Shown: positions 2,959-15,645 of the stretch, one piece after another
How positions within the stretch are numbered: position 1 is the first letter of the stretch
Layout of the letters: every line of letters begins with the position of its first letter
NCBI GenBank assembly: GCA_003166335.1
Contig: PMWA01000084.1
Location: 1 to 15,645 of the forward strand
Direction: 5' to 3'
DNA from: Methanobacterium sp.
Lineage (GTDB): Archaea; Methanobacteriota; Methanobacteria; Methanobacteriales; Methanobacteriaceae
Length of the DNA: 15,645 nt
The notes under the pieces: model-generated
Told to the model about the DNA's origin: nothing
Database searches by the model: none
Seen by the model: the letters and a program-made list of their open reading frames with translations, nothing else
Position numbers and translations under genes: made by a program

Positions 2959-3345
2959 GTAATAGATGAAATAATTTAAAAAAAAATATTTGAAAATAAT
3001 GTTAATTTTACTTCACATACGAAACTATCAATATCTAAGAATAATCTTTTTATAAAATGGTAATATAATACTCTACCAGCTATCAAAAAATGACTAGTTT
3101 TTCATTATTTCCTTTAAATTAATGGATCTAATGGTATGTTTTATTTTATTATCTGAAATAATCAGAAAGAAAATCTGTTCTCATAAATATCATCTTTTTT
3201 CAATAGGTTTATAATTATCCAAAAAAAATTTCTATTTTATAATTTACTGGATATTTCAAAGATAGTCTTAGTTTTTTTATCCCAAATCAATCCAAATATT
3301 ACATCATTCATTATATAATTTGTATATGTCAACAAAATAAATACG

Positions 3346-3410
3346 TGATCTAATTTAGATCATATAAATTATGTGATCTAATTTATAATACATGATCTAA
3401 TTTGGATCAT
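3346..3410. promoter_or_regulatory. Cluster of TGATCTAATTT repeats/palindromes; putative operator array
   Basis: TGATCTAATTT at 3346, 3374 and 3393; perfect palindrome TGATCTAA-T-TTAGATCA (3346-3362); one-mismatch palindrome ATGATCTAA-T-TTGGATCAT (3392-3410). Confidence 0.55.
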
Positions 3411-3777
3411 AATTAGTATATTTAAAAATAAAAGAATCTAAATTAAGTTCTTGTTAAGTCAATTAATATATATATATATATAATTTTATTTTTAACTACA
3501 ATTCATTTGCTTACCTGTATTTATCCTCTGATGGTTGAGAATGGGTCAATTACCAAGGATGATAACGCCTGCAATGAATTTAATAGAACTTACATTACAG
3601 TGATTAGTCATTAAATCAAGGTTAAAATCCTTATTTTAGGCATTTGAATAATAAAATTTATACATAAATTTGAAATATTAGATTAAATTCTCAAATTATA
3701 AATTATACTATTATTTAAATTATTTTTACTAATTCTTTATGGGCTTAGCAACTAATATTTTACTTAGGGGATTTAGT

Positions 3778-4306: not shown

Positions 4307-4348
4307 TGGGGCACGATTTGTGTACTATTTGTGCATAATTATTTAAAA
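4307..4348 (+). promoter_or_regulatory. Promoter copy 1: 11-bp tandem repeats abutting a TATA-like box
   Basis: TGGGG-CACGATTTGTG-TACTATTTGTG-CATAA-TTATTTAAAA, ending ~37 bp before the ATG at 4385; 37/42 identical to 4749-4790. Confidence 0.75.
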
Positions 4349-4384
4349 TATTATTTAGACAATTAAATTTAGGGTGAGCTTAAA

Positions 4385-4748: not shown

Positions 4749-4790
4749 TGGGGCATGGTTTGTGCACGATTTGTGCATAAATATTTAAAA
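4749..4790 (+). promoter_or_regulatory. Promoter copy 2: 11-bp tandem repeats abutting a TATA-like box
   Basis: TGGGG-CATGGTTTGTG-CACGATTTGTG-CATAA-ATATTTAAAA. Confidence 0.75.
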
Positions 4791-4929
4791 ATAATCGACT
4801 AAAAAATTAAATAAAGTTATGACGTGTTAAATTATTTACTTTGTTAAGAATTGACTCGCAAACCATGAATTAATGGTTCACCAGAAAAATTCACGTAATT
4901 GAAAAAGCAATATAAATGGAGTATTTAAA

Positions 4930-8047: not shown

Positions 8048-9781
8048 TTATGTTATAGGGATGGTGAAGTAGAAGGTTGAGCCTTTTCCTGGTTCGGATT
8101 CCACCCAGATATGTCCACCATGTCGTTTTATGATTTTTTTACTTATAGATAATCCTATGCCTGAACCGGGATATTTATTTCGAGTATGTAAACGTTTAAA
8201 TATCTCAAAGATTTGTTTTTGATATTCTTTTTCAATGCCAATTCCATTATCTTTCACAGCAAATATCCATTCTTTTTCATCTCTATGGGCAGATATATCG
8301 ATTATTGGAGTGTTTGATCCATGGAATTTTATGGCGTTGAGTATTAAATTCTGGAAAACCTGCCCCATCTGAGATTTATCCGCCATAATAATGGGAAGTG
8401 TATCATGAGTTATAATAGCATTACTCTCCTCTAGGGATACAGTTAAATTTGATAGAACATCATTTAATACGATTTCTAGGTCAACATTCTCAAAATCCTT
8501 AGTTTGATTAGAAACTCGTGAAAATGTTAAAAGGTCATCGATTAAATATTTCATACGATGAGCACCCTCAACTATAAAATCAATATATTCATCAGCATCA
8601 GTGTCAAGTTGATTTCTATAACGTCTTTCTAACAATTGGGTGAAACTAGTTACCATACGTAAGGGTTCTTGCAGGTCATGTGATGAAACATAAGCAAACT
8701 GTTCTAACTCCTTGTTTGATCTTTCCAATTCAATATTAGATTTTGAAAGTTCTTGAGTACGTTCTTTAACTTGTTCTTCTAGAGTTTCATTTATTTTCTT
8801 CAATGCGTTTTGTGTCTGTCTTTGTTCAGTAACATCAACATCCATCTCGAGGATTAAAGGTGTGCCATCTACATCTGTGAATGGGAAATCGTAAGCTTCA
8901 ATTATACTGCCATCTGGTGCTTTTACTTCCCATTGATGTGGTTGGCCTGTTTCAAGCACCTTATATGATTCACAAAAATCACATGGTTCTGTACGTCCGA
9001 AACAATAATCATAACAATATCGTCCTTCTGATTCGCCGAATTTATCACGGAAAGCTCGATTTGCAAATTTAACATGATAATCTGGAGTTAAAAGACATAT
9101 CATAGTTGGTAGAGTTTCCAGTACATCAAAAATTCGCTTTGCTTCAGCAAAACGTTGTTCATTATCATTTAAAGCTTCTTTCATCTTCTTTTTTTTGGTG
9201 CTTTCAAACTGTGTCCATTCGCCTTGACGTTTTACTAATGCAAATTCATGATTATTTACCACTTCTATTATCTCACTGGCATTGCATTTGTCAATACTAT
9301 AAGTACACATTGCGATCATTGGATAATTGATTAATATTGAGTCTACTTCTTCTTCATAATCAACGAAGTTATTCCAATTATCTTTCTCAAGCCAGGAAGT
9401 GTTACCGGTGAGTCTTAAACCATCAAATCCATTATCCAGCGCTTTATTTAATTTATTAACCCAACCATTAAGTACTATATCAGAATCGAATTCTCCTTCA
9501 ATTATATACCATTCATTGTAGGGAATTATTTCTAGTTGACCCTTCTCCAAGTATACATCAATATTTGGAAGGGCAAGCCTCAGTGCTTTTTCTACGTCTT
9601 CTATTTTTAATGGTTCAGATGTAACCCACATACAAAATTCATTATTCTCTAATCCTGCTTTGAAGTAAGGAACTAGAATATTAATTAAATCTTCTTTAGA
9701 TTCATAGAACATACAAAAATGGGTTCCCCATGGTACATTAGAGATACTATTAACACCGGTTTTTCTCAGGTCATCTTTCAT
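8048..9781 (-). CDS. Cytoplasmic sensor histidine kinase, MEDS-PAS-HisKA-HATPase
   Basis: MEDS motifs WGTHFCMFY, GFDGLRLTGN, IAMCTY; PAS with CYDYCFGRTEPCDFC; H-box FAYVSSHDLQEPLR; NLILNAIKF, DNGIG, GSGIGL. Confidence 0.92.
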   Translation of the reverse strand: MKDDLRKTGVNSISNVPWGTHFCMFYESKEDLINILVPYFKAGLENNEFCMWVTSEPLKIEDVEKALRLALPNIDVYLEKGQLEIIPYNEWYIIEGEFDSDIVLNGWVNKLNKALDNGFDGLRLTGNTSWLEKDNWNNFVDYEEEVDSILINYPMIAMCTYSIDKCNASEIIEVVNNHEFALVKRQGEWTQFESTKKKKMKEALNDNEQRFAEAKRIFDVLETLPTMICLLTPDYHVKFANRAFRDKFGESEGRYCYDYCFGRTEPCDFCESYKVLETGQPHQWEVKAPDGSIIEAYDFPFTDVDGTPLILEMDVDVTEQRQTQNALKKINETLEEQVKERTQELSKSNIELERSNKELEQFAYVSSHDLQEPLRMVTSFTQLLERRYRNQLDTDADEYIDFIVEGAHRMKYLIDDLLTFSRVSNQTKDFENVDLEIVLNDVLSNLTVSLEESNAIITHDTLPIIMADKSQMGQVFQNLILNAIKFHGSNTPIIDISAHRDEKEWIFAVKDNGIGIEKEYQKQIFEIFKRLHTRNKYPGSGIGLSISKKIIKRHGGHIWVESEPGKGSTFYFTIPIT

Positions 9782-9950: not shown

Positions 9951-11675
9951 CTAAAGAATAAATGGAATAAGTCTTTTAGTTTTCTTTGAATATTCAATGT
10001 ATTCATCTCCAAGTTCAGAGGTTAATGTTTTTTCTTCTACCTGGATGCGGTAACCATAAGCTACTGCGAATATGATTATTATTAATAGGGTGGCTGTCCA
10101 TGATTGTAATGCTAATCCAAATCCAATTAGGGAGTTACCGCATTTTATATTATCCCCTAAATCTGGAAGTGCTCTTTCTTTAAAGAGTTTTTGTTGTGCT
10201 TCTAAAGCATCTCGATTCTCTCCTTCCAGAACTTTAAGTAACAAACTGAGCTTAGTTACATTTACTGCTTGGGAGTCTATATCCACACCGTAGATGTTGT
10301 TTAGGAGTATTCTTTTCTTTTCTCTTATTGTGAGGTAATATTCTCCGCTTTTTCCCTGATATATCTTATCCTTTAAGCGATTTTTATCTTTATGTTTTGT
10401 ATAGTAATCTATGTGCCATTTTAATAAGTAAGTGAATGCTCCTAGGAGGAATGAACCAGATCCACAGGCAGGGTCTAATATCCTGAGTTCGGATACTTTA
10501 TTCGGTGTTTTACCCTTGCAGAGTTTCTCGACAGTATTCTCCACGATATAATCCACAATAAATTGTGGTGTATAGTACACACCACCTGCCTTTTTAACTT
10601 CGGGTTTATCTTCGATTTTAGCTTGATGTCCTGGGGTTAATCTGATGACTTTACCTAAGAATTGTTCATATACATTACCCAATATCTCTGGAGATAGTAC
10701 AGAAAACTCATATGGGCTATTAGGGTAATATAAGTCTTTTATAATAGTCTTGAAAATCGTATCATCTATCTTTAGATTCAAAGTAAATTTATCTGGTGAT
10801 GTGATTCTTCCATTCTCCTCATGGAAATGGAATAATCCAGAATTGTATTTTGCATCCGCTTTAATACAGATCTCACTGAAATGCTGGTAAATATTATCAT
10901 TATCCAGTAAAGTGCGGAGTTGCTCGTATTTTTCCACTCCTTGGTCTTCACACATCCTTAGAAAAACTATACGATCTATAATTTGTTGTACGGCATAATT
11001 CAGCTCTTCGATGGTTATTTCAGTATTCCGAAGAGCAATATTTTTAGCAAATAAATACCGCCATTCTTCAATTTCGGATAAGAATGCATCATCAACTTCA
11101 GTAGTGCCCCTCTTTTTCTTAGTCGCTTCTGCAAATTTATCAAACGACCCTTGGAGTACAGCCTGTCGAGAGAATATACTATATATCTCATCCCACTTTT
11201 CAAGATATTCATGGTAGTTTAGAAATATTATCCTGCCCGTGCTGGCTCGGTCATTCTTTTGAGGTTTCGTCCTCGACTCATAGACCGCCATCTCATCGAA
11301 ATCAGTGAGAATAGACAATGGTAGCTTAGCACTCCAAGCGTATCTCCTTAACTGATAGGAAGGTTCAATGCTCATTCTAACATTCACGGATGGCTTTTTA
11401 GCCTCTACAAAAAACATTTTCCTACCTGCCAAGGTGAAACAGAAATCAGGTGCTTTAGTACCACCACCAACCTTAATAGAATCCTCAAATATGACATCAC
11501 GATACTGGGGGGCTGCACCGGAAATATTATCCACATCCCATCCCAAAGCTTTAAAGAATGGATTGATGAATTCCTGCTTGAGCTGTTCTTCTTTGTAAGC
11601 TGGATTTTTATAGGCATTTAAATTACGCTCAAACTTATCCACCAACTCTCTTATCTCATTTGGTGCTTCCGGCAA
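9951..11675 (-). pseudogene. Truncated type IIG/IIL (Eco57I-like) restriction-modification enzyme fused in frame to the C-terminus of an ICMT-like membrane methyltransferase
   Basis: Nuclease motif APDFCF...FFVEAK; GVYYTP; motif I ILDPACGSGSFL; NIYGVDID; no NPPY. After IKCGNSLIG the sequence switches to FGLALQSW...YRIQVEEKTL...GDEYIEYSKKTKRLIPFIL, an ICMT/Ste14-type C-terminus. Confidence 0.8.
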
Positions 11676-11770: not shown

Positions 11771-12280
11771 ATGATGGTGATTGTAAAATGTGAGAAATGT
11801 GGGCAAGAATATCAATTAGGACCTAATGATAAACTTTCCGACTTTAAATGTGAATGTGGGGGAGAATTATCCTTAAAAGAGGCAGTAGTTGAACCTGTAA
11901 ATACTACAAAACCTAATAAACAACGTAAAAGTTGGAAAGAACAGACTAAGGGTGTTAAAGCTGGTGCTGATGAATTTGAATTTAATAAACTCTTTGAATA
12001 TGAAGAAAAAGCCAGTCGTTTAGAATTATTTATTAGGATATTTTATGCTATTCCTGTTGGCATAATACTCATTTTCTATAGTATAATAGCAGGTGTATTG
12101 GTAGCTTTACAATGGATAATAATATTAATCCTTGGGAAACGAAGTGAAGGTTTAACTGTTTTCATTAGAGGATATTTAGAATATAATATCCATTTAATGA
12201 GCTATTTTTCTATCATGACTGATAAAAGACCCGGAGTAACTCCTAAAAAAGTTAAAATATATGAAGTCATAGCAGAATAA
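11771..12280 (+). CDS. Zn-ribbon N-terminus joined to a DUF4389-like membrane domain (possible chimera)
   Basis: CEKCG...CECGG; then ASRLELFIRIFYAIP...LQWIIILILGKR...YFSIMTDKRP, resembling DUF4389. Confidence 0.65.
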   Translation: MMVIVKCEKCGQEYQLGPNDKLSDFKCECGGELSLKEAVVEPVNTTKPNKQRKSWKEQTKGVKAGADEFEFNKLFEYEEKASRLELFIRIFYAIPVGIILIFYSIIAGVLVALQWIIILILGKRSEGLTVFIRGYLEYNIHLMSYFSIMTDKRPGVTPKKVKIYEVIAE

Positions 12281-12313
12281 ATTTTATAATTTTACTTAAT
12301 AAATTATAAATCG

Positions 12314-12538
12314 AGAGATGGCTTAGATGCTTTCTAAACCAGATAAGTTGCCTAAACCTCCAAGAAAGGAACAACAAAAACAGGGGTAGACCTAAAGCAA
12401 AACAAAAGATGGAACAAATTACTATAAAGTTGCCCCCCCAAGATACTGGGAGAATTAATGAAATTATCATAAGAGAGCTACAATCCTATGAGTTATCACA
12501 TCCGCCAAGCTTTAGCAGAATATTTAGGAAAAAAATAA
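12314..12538 (+). pseudogene. Degraded ribbon-helix-helix (CopG-like) gene
   Basis: Pieces across frames: RDGLDA / SKPDKLPKPPRKE / NRGRPKAKQKMEQITIKLPP / KILGELMKLS*ESYNPMSYHIRQALAEYLGKK*; shift in the C7 run (12433-12439) and in-frame TAA at 12470. Confidence 0.7.
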
Positions 12539-13393
12539 TTAATTAAATCTTATATTTTCAATTTAGTCAGCAAACCTCATTCGTTATAAAATTTAAATGG
12601 ATATTAATCGTTTGATATACATGAAATGCATGATTTACACATAATTTTAGATAATACCAAATTTATTTTCTCTATTTCTTGTAATTATTAGTAAAATTGC
12701 TCAAATGATATATTTCATTTAAAGTCATTTAACTTAATCAGAATTAATAGTCTTTTTAATAATACAATAATATTCCTATTTAAATCCGATAAATTATTAA
12801 TTATTGAAAAAAATTTTGCATAATTTTGCATTTTTTAGAGATTTTTCTCAAATGTATGCGTTAGGTTTTGCATTCTTAAAAATTAAAATTTATAATTTTT
12901 ATTAATACTTTAAATCTATAAATTAATAATATATTTTTTAATATCAATCTTTTATTCATTCATGATAATTTAAAATAGGTTTAATTATATTATCATTTTA
13001 TCATGGTGTAATCTATTTCCTAGTCTAATCTATTAATCTCTTGAAACTATGCTGTTAATAATATCTCAACTTTATAACCGCTTAATAGGAAATAACTATT
13101 TTATTAGTTTTTTAATATGGGGGATGGAATAACCTCACAGCTTATATGTTCAAAATTTCGATTTTTGAATTACGGTCATAAAAAGACAGCCGAGTATTTA
13201 TGTGGCACATATCTAGTTACATAGGTGTTTAAAGAGTTATTCATGTAATTGACCTTAAATAGAGGAGATCCGTAGATAATAATGAAGTTATATAGCATTA
13301 TAAATGCTGGTTTTATAAGACACTCCATAGTATGTAATTATTTTAGAGTGTGAGAAATAAATGTGATGTTTTATGGTAATTAAAGTGATATAG

Positions 13394-13419
13394 TTTTCTC
13401 GCTCTCATCCTATAGTCAG
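13394..13419. repeat. Left arm of a perfect 26-bp inverted repeat
   Basis: TTTTCTCGCTCTCATCCTATAGTCAG, the exact reverse complement of 13966-13991. Confidence 0.95.
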
Positions 13420-13622
13420 GTTACATATATAGGTATAAAATATATATCATAAAAAATCTTCTTAAAATGGATTTAATGCAACTGTAATTAGTTAAATAAT
13501 AGTTATTCATAATATAATAAATTTTTAATGAATGTTTATTTCAAAGAATGATTAATATTCATTTAAAATTTTTTTTAATACATATTAAACATAATGTTAA
13601 TAAAAAAATAAAAAATATAAAG

Positions 13623-13751
13623 ACTCTCCCCCTAATATGATGCATATAAAGGATATAAAATGTTTCCAGTATCTGGAGTTATCCTCAGTTTACTGATTCA
13701 GGTACTGCTATTATTGTACGTGCTTAAAATTACTCTAGTTAGAAGGGGAGT
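13623..13751 (-). ncRNA. Candidate ~130-nt structured antisense RNA
   Basis: Minus-strand ends ACUCCCCUUCUAA / UUAGGGGGAGAGU pair at 12 of 13 positions (2 GU); internal AGGAUA/UAUCCU and UCCAG/CUGGA stems; TATA-like sequence upstream (~13765-13790) and U-rich tract downstream. Confidence 0.4.
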
Positions 13752-13770
13752 ATTTAGTTTTTTGATATAA
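13660..13770 (+). CDS. 36-aa hydrophobic single-TM peptide, type I toxin-like
   Basis: MFPVSGVILSLLIQVLLLLYVLKITLVRRGVFSFLI*; AAGGA just upstream of the ATG; not in the supplied ORF track. Confidence 0.5.
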   Translation: MFPVSGVILSLLIQVLLLLYVLKITLVRRGVFSFLI

Positions 13771-13965
13771 AATAATATAATATTATATAATTATTATTAT
13801 GAAAAAATTTAAAGAGTTTACAATACTTTATTTTATTCTAATTAAAAAAAACTGCATTGCTTGTGGAAATAAATAGATTTTATAAGATTTAAAATTTAAA
13901 AACATATTCTCCTGATGTTTTCGCTTTCTAAATATATTATATATTTTTAACCCTACCCTTTAAAG

Positions 13966-13991
13966 CTGACTATAGGATGAGAGCGAGAAAA
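13966..13991. repeat. Right arm of a perfect 26-bp inverted repeat
   Basis: CTGACTATAGGATGAGAGCGAGAAAA. Confidence 0.95.
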
Positions 13992-14232
13992 GTAATGGAT
14001 GTTTATTTCATAAATATATTATATTTATTTCTTGCTTTGTTAAAAAAAAAACTTAACTCATGGTTTGAATTTTGAAATACTATTCATATTCTTTATTAAA
14101 CCAATGATGATAGGGGACTGTAATAATTACAGAAAAAAATAAATTATTTAGGAAATAATTAACTTTAACTAATTATATTCGAAATAAAAAATATAATGAG
14201 CATATAAATCTCTTAAACTTAGAAAATAAGAG

Positions 14233-14799
14233 TTATATACTGAATTTATATTTCTTAACAATTTCGTATTTTTCTTCGGAATAACCTAAGTTTCTCAAGT
14301 AAAATAACTTAATCTTAAAAAGATATTTTCCCCATCCAACCTTTTTGTTAGTTATATCATTTTCTGGTATTCCAGCATCAATTAACTCTTGTTTCTTATA
14401 TCCATACACATATATCATAGATCTACCGCATGGAACATCTAAAGTGTGTCCTTTACCTTCTGAAGGATATTTCCACTTTTGTTCTTCCCAAGGACTATTA
14501 TCTTTTCGTTTTATTAAATGTTTAGCACTTCTTCTATTCCCATTAATCTTATAACGTTCTTTTGAAAGTCTATTCATGCAAATATTGCATATATCATTTC
14601 GCTTAGCATAGTTATAGTAATTATCGATGCTCAGAGTGTTTCCACATTCTTTACATATCTCTTTTTGGCTAAAATCTTCTCCAGCATATATTTCACGACA
14701 ATTGTTACATACACTTTCTATATCATCTGATTCATAGAATTCTTCCATTGTTAATTTAGAACCACACTTTTTACATCGAATATTTAACGTATCGACCAT
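14233..14799 (-). CDS. Hypothetical protein with two tandem C4 Zn-finger-like repeats and a basic C-terminal domain
   Basis: CKKC..CNNC and CKEC..CNIC with similar spacing; Lys/Arg-rich C-terminus. Confidence 0.75.
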   Translation of the reverse strand: MVDTLNIRCKKCGSKLTMEEFYESDDIESVCNNCREIYAGEDFSQKEICKECGNTLSIDNYYNYAKRNDICNICMNRLSKERYKINGNRRSAKHLIKRKDNSPWEEQKWKYPSEGKGHTLDVPCGRSMIYVYGYKKQELIDAGIPENDITNKKVGWGKYLFKIKLFYLRNLGYSEEKYEIVKKYKFSI

Positions 14800-14858
14800 T
14801 ATAATACTTCCTTTTACACTCTTATTTAATTTTTAGTCATTAATCCTTAAAGTATCCT

Positions 14859-14990
14859 TTAATATTCATAATTATCTTTGCGAACTTCTTCAAGTAATGC
14901 TTCCAGTTCAGCATCATCAATTCTAACTTCTTCAAGCAATGCTTCTAGATCATCATTATCAATATTTTCAGAATTTATTTCGTTGATCAT
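14859..14990 (-). CDS. 43-aa acidic peptide with a duplicated 14-aa motif
   Basis: GAGGT RBS; MINEINSEN-IDNDDLEALLEEVR-IDDAELEALLEEVR-KDNYEY*; 16 of 43 residues are D/E. Confidence 0.7.
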   Translation of the reverse strand: MINEINSENIDNDDLEALLEEVRIDDAELEALLEEVRKDNYEY

Positions 14991-15064
14991 ATCTTTTACC
15001 TCATTTTAAAGTCATATATTCACTTAATAATAAAAATTGGAATAAAACATCCATAATGATTCAA

Positions 15065-15247
15065 TTACATATGTTTTTTTCTAAATCTATTTTTTACAAA
15101 TTTAAGATACTCTGTTAATGCAAGATTTACAATCATGGATGTATCAAGATCAATTCCTGATTTATCATATATTTTGCCGGTAACCGATTTAATGGCCGAA
15201 TATTGCTCTTCATTTATGTATACACAATAAAATTCTTCATTAGACAT
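15065..15247 (-). CDS. Small RHH-like DNA-binding protein (60 aa)
   Basis: GAGGT RBS before the ATG at 15247; beta-strand YCVYI, a helix, then TSMIVNLALTEYL. Confidence 0.6.
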   Translation of the reverse strand: MSNEEFYCVYINEEQYSAIKSVTGKIYDKSGIDLDTSMIVNLALTEYLKFVKNRFRKKHM

Positions 15248-15258
15248 GCTTTTACCTC

Positions 15259-15405
15259 TCAATTTTTATTATTTATAGTCTTTAGATGTTTAATTACGGC
15301 TGTTTGAATAAATTCAGAAACATTGTTATAGTTTCCATTATCAACAGCATTTTTAATTGCTATTATATCCTTAAGTTCCAGCGAAACACTTTTGCTTAGT
15401 TTAAT
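15259..15405 (-). CDS. RHH (CopG/MetJ/Arc-like) protein with an ATT start codon (48 aa)
   Basis: GGAGGT 6 nt before ATT; (M)KLSKSVSLELKDIIAIKNAVDNGNYNNVSEFIQTAVIKHLKTINNKN*; its stop abuts the RBS of the next gene. Confidence 0.65.
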   Translation of the reverse strand: MKLSKSVSLELKDIIAIKNAVDNGNYNNVSEFIQTAVIKHLKTINNKN

Positions 15406-15538
15406 GATTTTACCTCCATTAAATTTAATTTATAATAACTTTTATTATAATCATTATTAGGAGTCAGGCACTTATATAGCTAACGGAAATGATCTAAAAT
15501 CGATTAATAAAACTTACCAATGGTTTTTATTTATTTTA

Positions 15539-15645
15539 TAACTAGTTCAGATTCTCCAGAATCAAAAGTCATCGTCATAACAGAAATTAGAACCTAATTA
15601 CAAAAAATGTAAGACAAAATAGGTATTCTAACTAGTTCAGATTCT
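15539..15645. repeat. 17-bp direct repeat with a 90-bp period; second copy cut by the window end
   Basis: TAACTAGTTCAGATTCT at 15539-15555 and 15629-15645. Confidence 0.85.

Follow-up and report, generated by a model that had tools for sequence, protein, structure and literature searches.

Features of the hairpin locus

We analysed a 15,645-nt stretch of DNA (the window) that constitutes contig C126 of a 2.49-Mb, 99%-complete Methanobacterium sp. assembly and whose sequence occurs mainly in peat metagenomes. Apart from the locus described here, the window encodes a MEDS-domain kinase, TrkA, MFS and PadR, in keeping with a Methanobacteriaceae methanogen. The locus is embedded in about 1.95 kb of sequence (12281-14232) that lacks a convincing ORF of at least 60 aa; a 67-codon minus-strand frame at 12267-12470 overlaps an RHH-like fragment, which has a copy on contig C106. 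The following features were located in and around this stretch.

13350..13451, no strand assigned: left repeat arm, with a perfect 26-bp core at 13394-13419 and an inverted GYRAGAAA pair (13350 plus, 13402 minus)
13599..13620, minus strand: U-tract (18/22) directly past the closing stem, candidate terminator of an antisense RNA
13616..13621, plus strand: weak TATA candidate (score 3.0), the best plus-strand site ahead of the ORF
13623..13751, no strand assigned: imperfect palindrome with closing arms at 13623-13635 and 13739-13751
13650..13655, plus strand: weak SD-like AGGA(TA), 4 nt of which are complementary to an assumed anti-SD
13660..13770, plus strand: 36-codon ORF with a predicted membrane helix at about residues 4-22, followed by K..RR and a hydrophobic tail
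13806..13821, minus strand: TATA-like site (13813, score 8.9), with a predicted minus-strand start near 13782
13935..14035, no strand assigned: right repeat arm, with a perfect core at 13966-13991 and an inverted GYRAGAAA pair (13983 plus, 14035 minus)
14233..15429, minus strand: orphan four-gene run encoding an RHH-like protein, a 65-aa protein, an acidic repeat protein and a 188-aa zinc-ribbon protein
15536..15645, no strand assigned: onset of a non-coding 90-bp tandem repeat, four copies of which lie at 8789-9180 of metagenome contig L069, by the island junction

Coding signal of the 36-codon ORF

The ORF at 13660-13770 translates into the 36-aa peptide MFPVSGVILSLLIQVLLLLYVLKITLVRRGVFSFLI. 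As the original prediction had described, it carries a hydrophobic stretch followed by a lysine and two arginines, and its best 19-residue Kyte-Doolittle mean was 2.6. Equal hydrophobicity with two K/R residues behind it was found in 17 of 1753 intergenic ORFs of 25-60 codons as compared to 1-5 of about 1750 in each of five block shuffles, and several of the 17 resemble genuine small membrane genes. The second codon position was T in 23 of 35 codons (p 5e-4), a periodicity reached by 26 of the 1753 real intergenic ORFs and by 0-4 shuffled ones; many of these 26 resemble off-frame shadows of genes. The frame antisense to the ORF has four stops, so an antisense gene is not the source of the ORF's periodicity. 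Both tests read one common signal and are not independent, and their thresholds, including the cut-off of the hydrophobic count, were the values of the ORF itself. A comparable ORF arose in 1% of 20000 dinucleotide shuffles of 13600-13800.

Under a codon model built from membrane segments of this genome, the ORF frame scored 4.9 bits, at the 24th percentile of real segments. A 22-codon shifted frame over the ORF also scored as real genes do (37th percentile); as 541 of 996 real membrane segments keep the corresponding shifted frame open, it needs no cause of its own. The overall codon score was low, in the bottom 4% of gene pieces, and was attained by 43% of intergenic ORFs. The SD scored -3.8 kcal/mol against an assumed anti-SD (the 16S end was not found in the assembly), a value equalled or bettered in 25% of 1664 intergenic ORFs. 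Neighbouring ORFs showed gene-like SD signals. The ORF has gene-free flanks of 1380 nt upstream and 463 nt downstream, where the four-gene run ends. Two more ORFs encoding a hydrophobic stretch followed by KK lie within 350 nt (13645 minus and 13977 plus), both without T2 periodicity, indicating that toxin look-alikes arise easily in this DNA. We judge it marginally favoured that ORF 13660-13770 is a real, intact gene.

Folding of the hairpin and pairing of the start site

The GC content of the palindrome was 35% against 12-16% in its flanks. By mirror score the palindrome ranked seventh across 621 kb of intergenic sequence; of the six peaks above it, three resembled tRNA stretches by eye. Both the hairpin and the 36-codon ORF are rarer in the genome than expected by chance. 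The two arms of the proposed closing stem do pair. The further claim that this stem pairs better on the minus strand held by pair count in the mirror register only (12/13 minus, 11/13 plus), whereas by energy the plus strand was as stable or more so (-9.5 versus -9.1 and -14.7 versus -11.5 kcal/mol). As a whole, the plus strand of the element folded into one rod of -34.3 kcal/mol (z -1.9; matched or bettered by 8 of 200 shuffles) and the minus strand reached -26.2 kcal/mol (z -1.1). The inner helix at 13667-13707 relies on G-U pairs present only on the plus strand (-14.9 plus versus -8.3 minus). Folding z scores were modest for plus-strand forms with both arms (-1.9 to -2.4) and lay between -0.3 and -1.2 for minus-strand forms and for plus-strand forms beginning after 13640; windows adjoining the hairpin reached -2.9 and -3.0.

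The AGGATA word at 13650-13655 and its complement TATCCT at 13680-13685 are both present as originally described. The proposed sequestration of the ribosome binding site by TATCCT was not the dominant fold of the full-length plus-strand RNA, in which the computed probability of this pairing was 0.04; it rose to 0.53 only when the nascent chain was ended at 13690. In the full-length fold the SD and AUG were instead paired with the 3' part of the ORF. Opening the start region cost a computed 4.9 kcal/mol, and 53% of 300 ordinary genes required at least this much. As this cost is the median of ordinary genes, special occlusion of the start site is unsupported.

Rfam covariance models run over the whole window gave no match at E<=1. 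Pairing of outward transcripts of the repeat arms with the hairpin was no better than in shuffles. Readings of the hairpin as attC, dif or tRNA-like were rejected by eye against consensus sequences, and no tRNA was present in L069.

A 26-bp inverted repeat brackets the hairpin

The original prediction overlooked a 26-bp inverted repeat on either side of the hairpin. The two arms are about 75% identical over 100 bp, and the unit of about 600 bp that they bound is centred on the hairpin, with the centres of the repeat (13692.5), closing stem (13687) and inner hairpin (13690.5) nearly coinciding. No other perfect inverted repeat of at least 24 bp, spaced 100-3000 bp apart, was found in the assembly, and the core had no third copy in the genome at up to 6 mismatches. 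Similarity between the arms extended beyond the perfect core both outward (0/2000 shuffles) and inward (3/2000). The GYRAGAAA motif, which was picked post hoc, occurred 4 times against 0.19 expected, with identical pair spacing in each arm. The AT-rich spacers between arms and hairpin had mirror similarity at chance level (z -1.05; equalled by 29% of 1884 controls). The symmetric, repeat-bounded cassette makes the anatomy of this locus more unusual than was originally held.

No target duplication was seen at the repeat-bounded unit. Only the two arms were found in the genome at up to 6 mismatches, and 327 other genomes had no copy when up to 3 were allowed, so the unit did not behave as a member of a MITE family. 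No PF00078 reverse-transcriptase match was found in the assembly, which sets the unit apart from retrons. No resolvase was found in the 99%-complete assembly; eight tyrosine-recombinase matches were, none of them on the contig of the window. Four RNA runs (X17-X20) contained no strand-switch joints. A 14-nt stretch of contig C34 that matches the repeat core falls within a broken gene for a membrane protein and was regarded as coincidental.

Candidate promoter and terminator signals and RNA data

Promoters were scored with a model trained on 17 tRNA upstream sites (training scores 2-12.3), after an initial model spoiled by tRNA T-loops had been discarded. The original prediction had described the minus strand as TATA-like upstream of the hairpin. 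The nearest minus-strand sites, at 13771 and 13791, scored only 2.5 and 1.4, but a good site was found at 13813 (8.9), from which a start near 13782 was placed using an assumed 31-nt offset from TATA to start. The TTTAAA in this site is palindromic and scored 8.7 on the plus strand. There were seven TATA-like sites scoring at least 8.5 in 12560-14233, and the region held 16 sites at a score of at least 6 against 8.3 in shuffles, and 46 against 47 at a score of 3. No strong plus-strand promoter was found for the 36-aa ORF with this model. The minus-strand U-rich downstream sequence proved to be the strongest U-tract in 12560-14233 (13599-13620), but it doubles as a TATA-like sequence (10.0). 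The minus strand thus carries a TATA-like site, the closing helix and the region's top U-tract in the correct order.

Parts of the stretch were contained in five RNA runs. The RNA data consisted of contigs from four of 22 listed runs, X17, X18, X19 and X20; these contigs are unstranded and do not give true ends, and gaps in cover were not counted. X20 contained a single adapter-flanked insert covering 13641-13782 on 4.5 kb, whose right end coincides with the predicted minus-strand start although the insert carries no strand. By our own post hoc count such a match is expected at about 2% of positions (seven sites scoring at least 8.5, +/-2 nt, 1670 nt). Coming from one strandless insert and noted after the fact, it is a weak hint. 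X19 contained a piece at 13563-13723 as well as pieces elsewhere, and X18 had no piece on the element. X17 covered 29 of 30 bins and may for that reason reflect DNA or pervasive RNA. One X17 contig spanned 12981-13421, a somewhat GC-richer non-coding region, and ended two bases beyond the left repeat core; folding of this region was not above shuffles.

Searches for relatives

The DNA of the element had no other copy in its own genome. Among 200 family genomes, 89 had matches, all short (19-59 nt) and mostly AT-rich, and three matches inspected near the 3' arm were unrelated. A covariance model built from the element found nothing in its own genome or in 150 family genomes. The repeat core was absent from 327 order genomes and from an exact scan of GTDB, and the longer repeat arm gave five short matches at chance level in 300 genomes. 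Window positions 12570-15645 had no match at E<=1e-8 in 18 genus genomes. Two pattern searches of viral contigs returned nothing; five further pattern loci in viral contigs had no model support (best E 1.1), and one more was interrupted by a stop at codon 15.

No homologue of the peptide was found in the 18 genus genomes, among 5.8 billion proteins (searched with the 44-codon open frame) or in the ESM Atlas. A TBLASTN search for frame-preserving homologues, as the original prediction had proposed, gave no match in phage and plasmid records. Five peptide matches in 320 order genomes (E 0.01-0.05) were rejected as all had internal stops, and three were antisense to a conserved gene. The peptide matched no family in Pfam, PHROGs, NCBIfam or PADLOC, known toxin families (Ibs, Hok, Ldr/Fst, TxpA and others) included, and no paralogue, tandem copies included, was found in its own genome. 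No homologue of peptide, hairpin or repeat was found in any of these searches, which did not cover some withheld stretches of the genomes and may miss near-identical records. These blank searches weigh little against the 36-aa ORF since neighbouring ORFs with gene-like SDs are equally orphan. Judged by these searches, the locus is a single-lineage candidate and has no comparative support.

Island context of the locus

Over 12301-14800 the window and metagenome contig L069 have identical sequences, and L069 extends beyond the window end. Six of the 18 genus genomes matched L069 closely up to about 8765 and no further, and a 9-bp word, TCTATTTAA, marks the insertion point (L069 8749-8757). In two genomes (G063, G152) this word runs straight into sequence found on contig C88 of the window's assembly (G000), where the word recurs at about 2899. 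In a third genome (G131) it is followed by a different insert, whose first bases match 25-nt repeats at window 3337-3411. By these empty and filled patterns, the window belongs to an island that was inserted at a reused site. Judging from apparent TrkA halves, C88 appears to connect to the window start. The insertion site with its duplicated 9-bp word was empty in G063 and G152 (L069, C88, L071, L072, L076). No integrase was found in the portions of the island that were read.

The RHH-like frame of the four-gene run matched Pfam RHH_8 at E 0.008, below the cut-off. This frame (15259-15429, minus) contains no ATG, GTG or TTG, and a GGAGG just ahead of an ATT suggests the latter as its start. 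The 188-aa zinc-ribbon protein showed weak PHROG likeness to phage endonuclease families (E 2.5e-6) and had two distant relatives, both without DNA context; the other frames of the run were as orphan in homologue searches as the peptide. A metagenome scan using the neighbour proteins returned only the same sequence (L069).

Interpretation and comparison with known systems

We tentatively favour, at rather less than even probability, a lineage-restricted gene for a membrane peptide, overlapped along its full length by a convergent antisense RNA and set in a 600-bp repeat-bounded cassette at the edge of an island. The plus-strand RNA would adopt a long rod with its start codon paired. A minus-strand RNA some 170-180 nt long (from about 13782 to about 13605) would start from the 13813 TATA-like site, stop at the U-tract and span the entire ORF. 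It would pair end to end with the plus-strand RNA, blocking translation or triggering decay, and when its level dropped the peptide would be synthesised and insert in the membrane. We infer both transcripts, translation of the peptide and its repression by the antisense RNA. The peptide and antisense reading gains from the coding-like signal, the agreement with published filters given below, the order of promoter and U-tract on the minus strand and the X20 end, and loses from the blank homologue searches, weak SD, low codon score, ordinary start-site occlusion, lack of a strong plus-strand promoter, modest folding z, nearby look-alike ORFs and strandless RNA data.

If the two RNAs are made, the odds are about even between a toxic peptide, as in type I systems, and a harmless stress peptide resembling M. 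mazei sP24. A true archaeal type I toxin-antitoxin, with a new membrane-toxin family silenced by an antisense RNA and a cassette that stabilises an island in a peat methanogen, is unlikely. Of the original type I-like reading, the layout stands (single-helix ORF, isolation, a plausible convergent minus-strand unit, the island), while pairing with TATCCT is a minor fold and occlusion of the ribosome binding site is ordinary. The toxin-antitoxin reading is less well supported than originally claimed, and the suggested addiction or abortive module of a mobile element is a hypothetical role.

In E. coli ibs/Sib the antisense RNA covers the whole ORF. The present locus is like ibs/Sib in layout, with a small membrane peptide and a predicted, fully overlapping antisense RNA, but unlike it and other type I loci it belongs to no known family, has no tandem paralogues and no marked SD sequestration, and its cassette is flanked by a 26-bp inverted repeat. 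Antisense RNAs also control plasmid replicons of the cop-tap-rep kind, and such control has been proposed for the Methanothermobacter plasmid pME2001, a precedent for which our literature search found nothing. Common to these and the locus are a Methanobacteriales mobile piece with an RHH-like gene, repeats and a short ORF that may be overlapped by an antisense RNA, but here the plus strand has no rep gene downstream of the short ORF and there was no similarity to plasmid or phage records. MITEs, ERIC-like degenerate palindromes and mobile insertion cassettes are short units with inverted ends and an internal palindrome, as here, but the present unit is single copy, shows no target duplication and has similarity past the core on both sides.

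Fozo et al. 2010 (PMC2887945) give as filters for such loci fewer than 70 aa, one membrane stretch, a charged or aromatic C-terminus, and more than 400 nt upstream and 250 nt downstream free of genes. The ORF fits these with 36 aa, a 19-residue Kyte-Doolittle mean of 2.6, a K/R/R/F/F tail and 1380 and 463 nt free. Marked SD occlusion is described as a hallmark of type I toxins in the T1TAdb report (PMC8594479); here the computed opening energy was at the genome median. According to PMC12390103 (2025), type I systems have so far come from three bacterial phyla only. PMC6523106 reports, among archaeal toxin-antitoxin loci, antisense RNAs on those of type II only. Our literature search, with most subscription journals outside its scope, found no validated archaeal type I toxin-antitoxin.

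The closest likeness is to M. mazei spRNA24/asRNA94. In that work Northern blots detected both RNAs, of which the mRNA is probably leaderless; the sP24 membrane peptide aids growth in salt and does not kill (bioRxiv 10.1101/2025.10.28.685009). The two loci share a methanogen host, a one-helix peptide (here predicted), an intergenic short RNA with a main stem and an overlapping antisense RNA (both predicted here) and a narrow distribution; they differ in that the M. mazei RNAs are demonstrated and the peptide growth-promoting, and the likeness to the window peptide is one of layout. The one methanogen membrane-peptide/antisense pair that our literature search brought up, sP24, is non-toxic. If the present peptide were toxic, RNA-antitoxin addiction modules would extend to Archaea and a small tool for plasmid maintenance in methanogens would be at hand; if only the cassette is real, it would be a symmetric element, so far undescribed, on an orphan mobile piece of a methanogen.

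A non-coding, two-fold symmetric cis element with the hairpin at its centre and the ORF incidental is nearly as likely as the favoured reading, though likewise at less than even probability. Such an element might serve as an origin, a partition site or a recombination cassette, or be what is left of an inverted duplication, with GYRAGAAA as possible half-sites for the RHH-like protein encoded in the neighbouring operon. It would account for the assembly-unique perfect repeat with its coinciding centres, the similarity past the core both ways, the motif excess (subject to the post hoc choice of motif) and the adjoining RHH-like frame and 90-bp repeats, but leaves the codon periodicity unexplained. 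The spacers are not mirror-similar, strand-switch joints were absent from the four RNA runs, no resolvase or reverse transcriptase was found and the tyrosine recombinases lie on other contigs, all of which count against it. A multi-copy MITE is excluded by the lack of any further repeat copy at up to 6 mismatches.

Against the favoured peptide and antisense pair stand two further accounts of the ORF. That it is a plain small membrane-protein gene, with the hairpin as the fold of its mRNA and any minus-strand RNA as background from AT-rich DNA, seems rather unlikely to us. The better folding of the plus strand and the abundance of TATA-like sites in the region fit it, as does the description in PMC6523106 of H. 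salinarum antisense RNAs as mostly low-level and unconserved, but it is the minus strand that owns the better promoter and U-tract, and the symmetric cassette would be unaccounted for. It is improbable that the ORF is a decayed remnant of a lost membrane-protein gene, without present function, among broken genes. The perfect 26-bp core inside 75%-identical arms suggests upkeep and the parent protein was not found in our searches; while the shifted frame scored in the range of real genes, such a frame is open in many real membrane segments anyway. Broken neighbours, namely a truncated type IIG gene and the RHH-like fragment with its C106 copy, do point toward decay.

Other features of the window

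The type IIG restriction-modification gene (9951-11675, minus) is truncated near half its length and runs into an unrelated membrane-protein tail. A DUF4389 gene (11771-12373; L065) encodes an N-terminal zinc ribbon, and in one genome (G159) copies of the gene and of the sequence downstream of it surround 15 kb of varied defence-like and membrane genes in a cassette-array-like arrangement. A 42-bp direct repeat (88%; 4307-4350 and 4749-4792, 442 bp apart) flanks a 111-aa membrane ORF. The acidic ORF of the four-gene run (14859-14990) encodes 43 aa in the window and 71 aa in L069 (9726-9941). The difference amounts to two additional 42-nt (14-residue) repeat copies in L069, reflecting either assembly collapse or real length variation. 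The 90-bp units, which lie upstream of the RHH-like gene and are collapsed at the contig end, follow the order A-B-B-A and share a core of about 30 bp; a 10-mer match to these units was not significant by a rough k-mer count. An ORF at 13995-14075 (plus; 26-32 aa), encoding a hydrophobic stretch followed by KKK, starts in the right repeat arm. It has a high-scoring TATA site ahead of it at 13959 and a local fold z of about -2.9, and is without codon periodicity.
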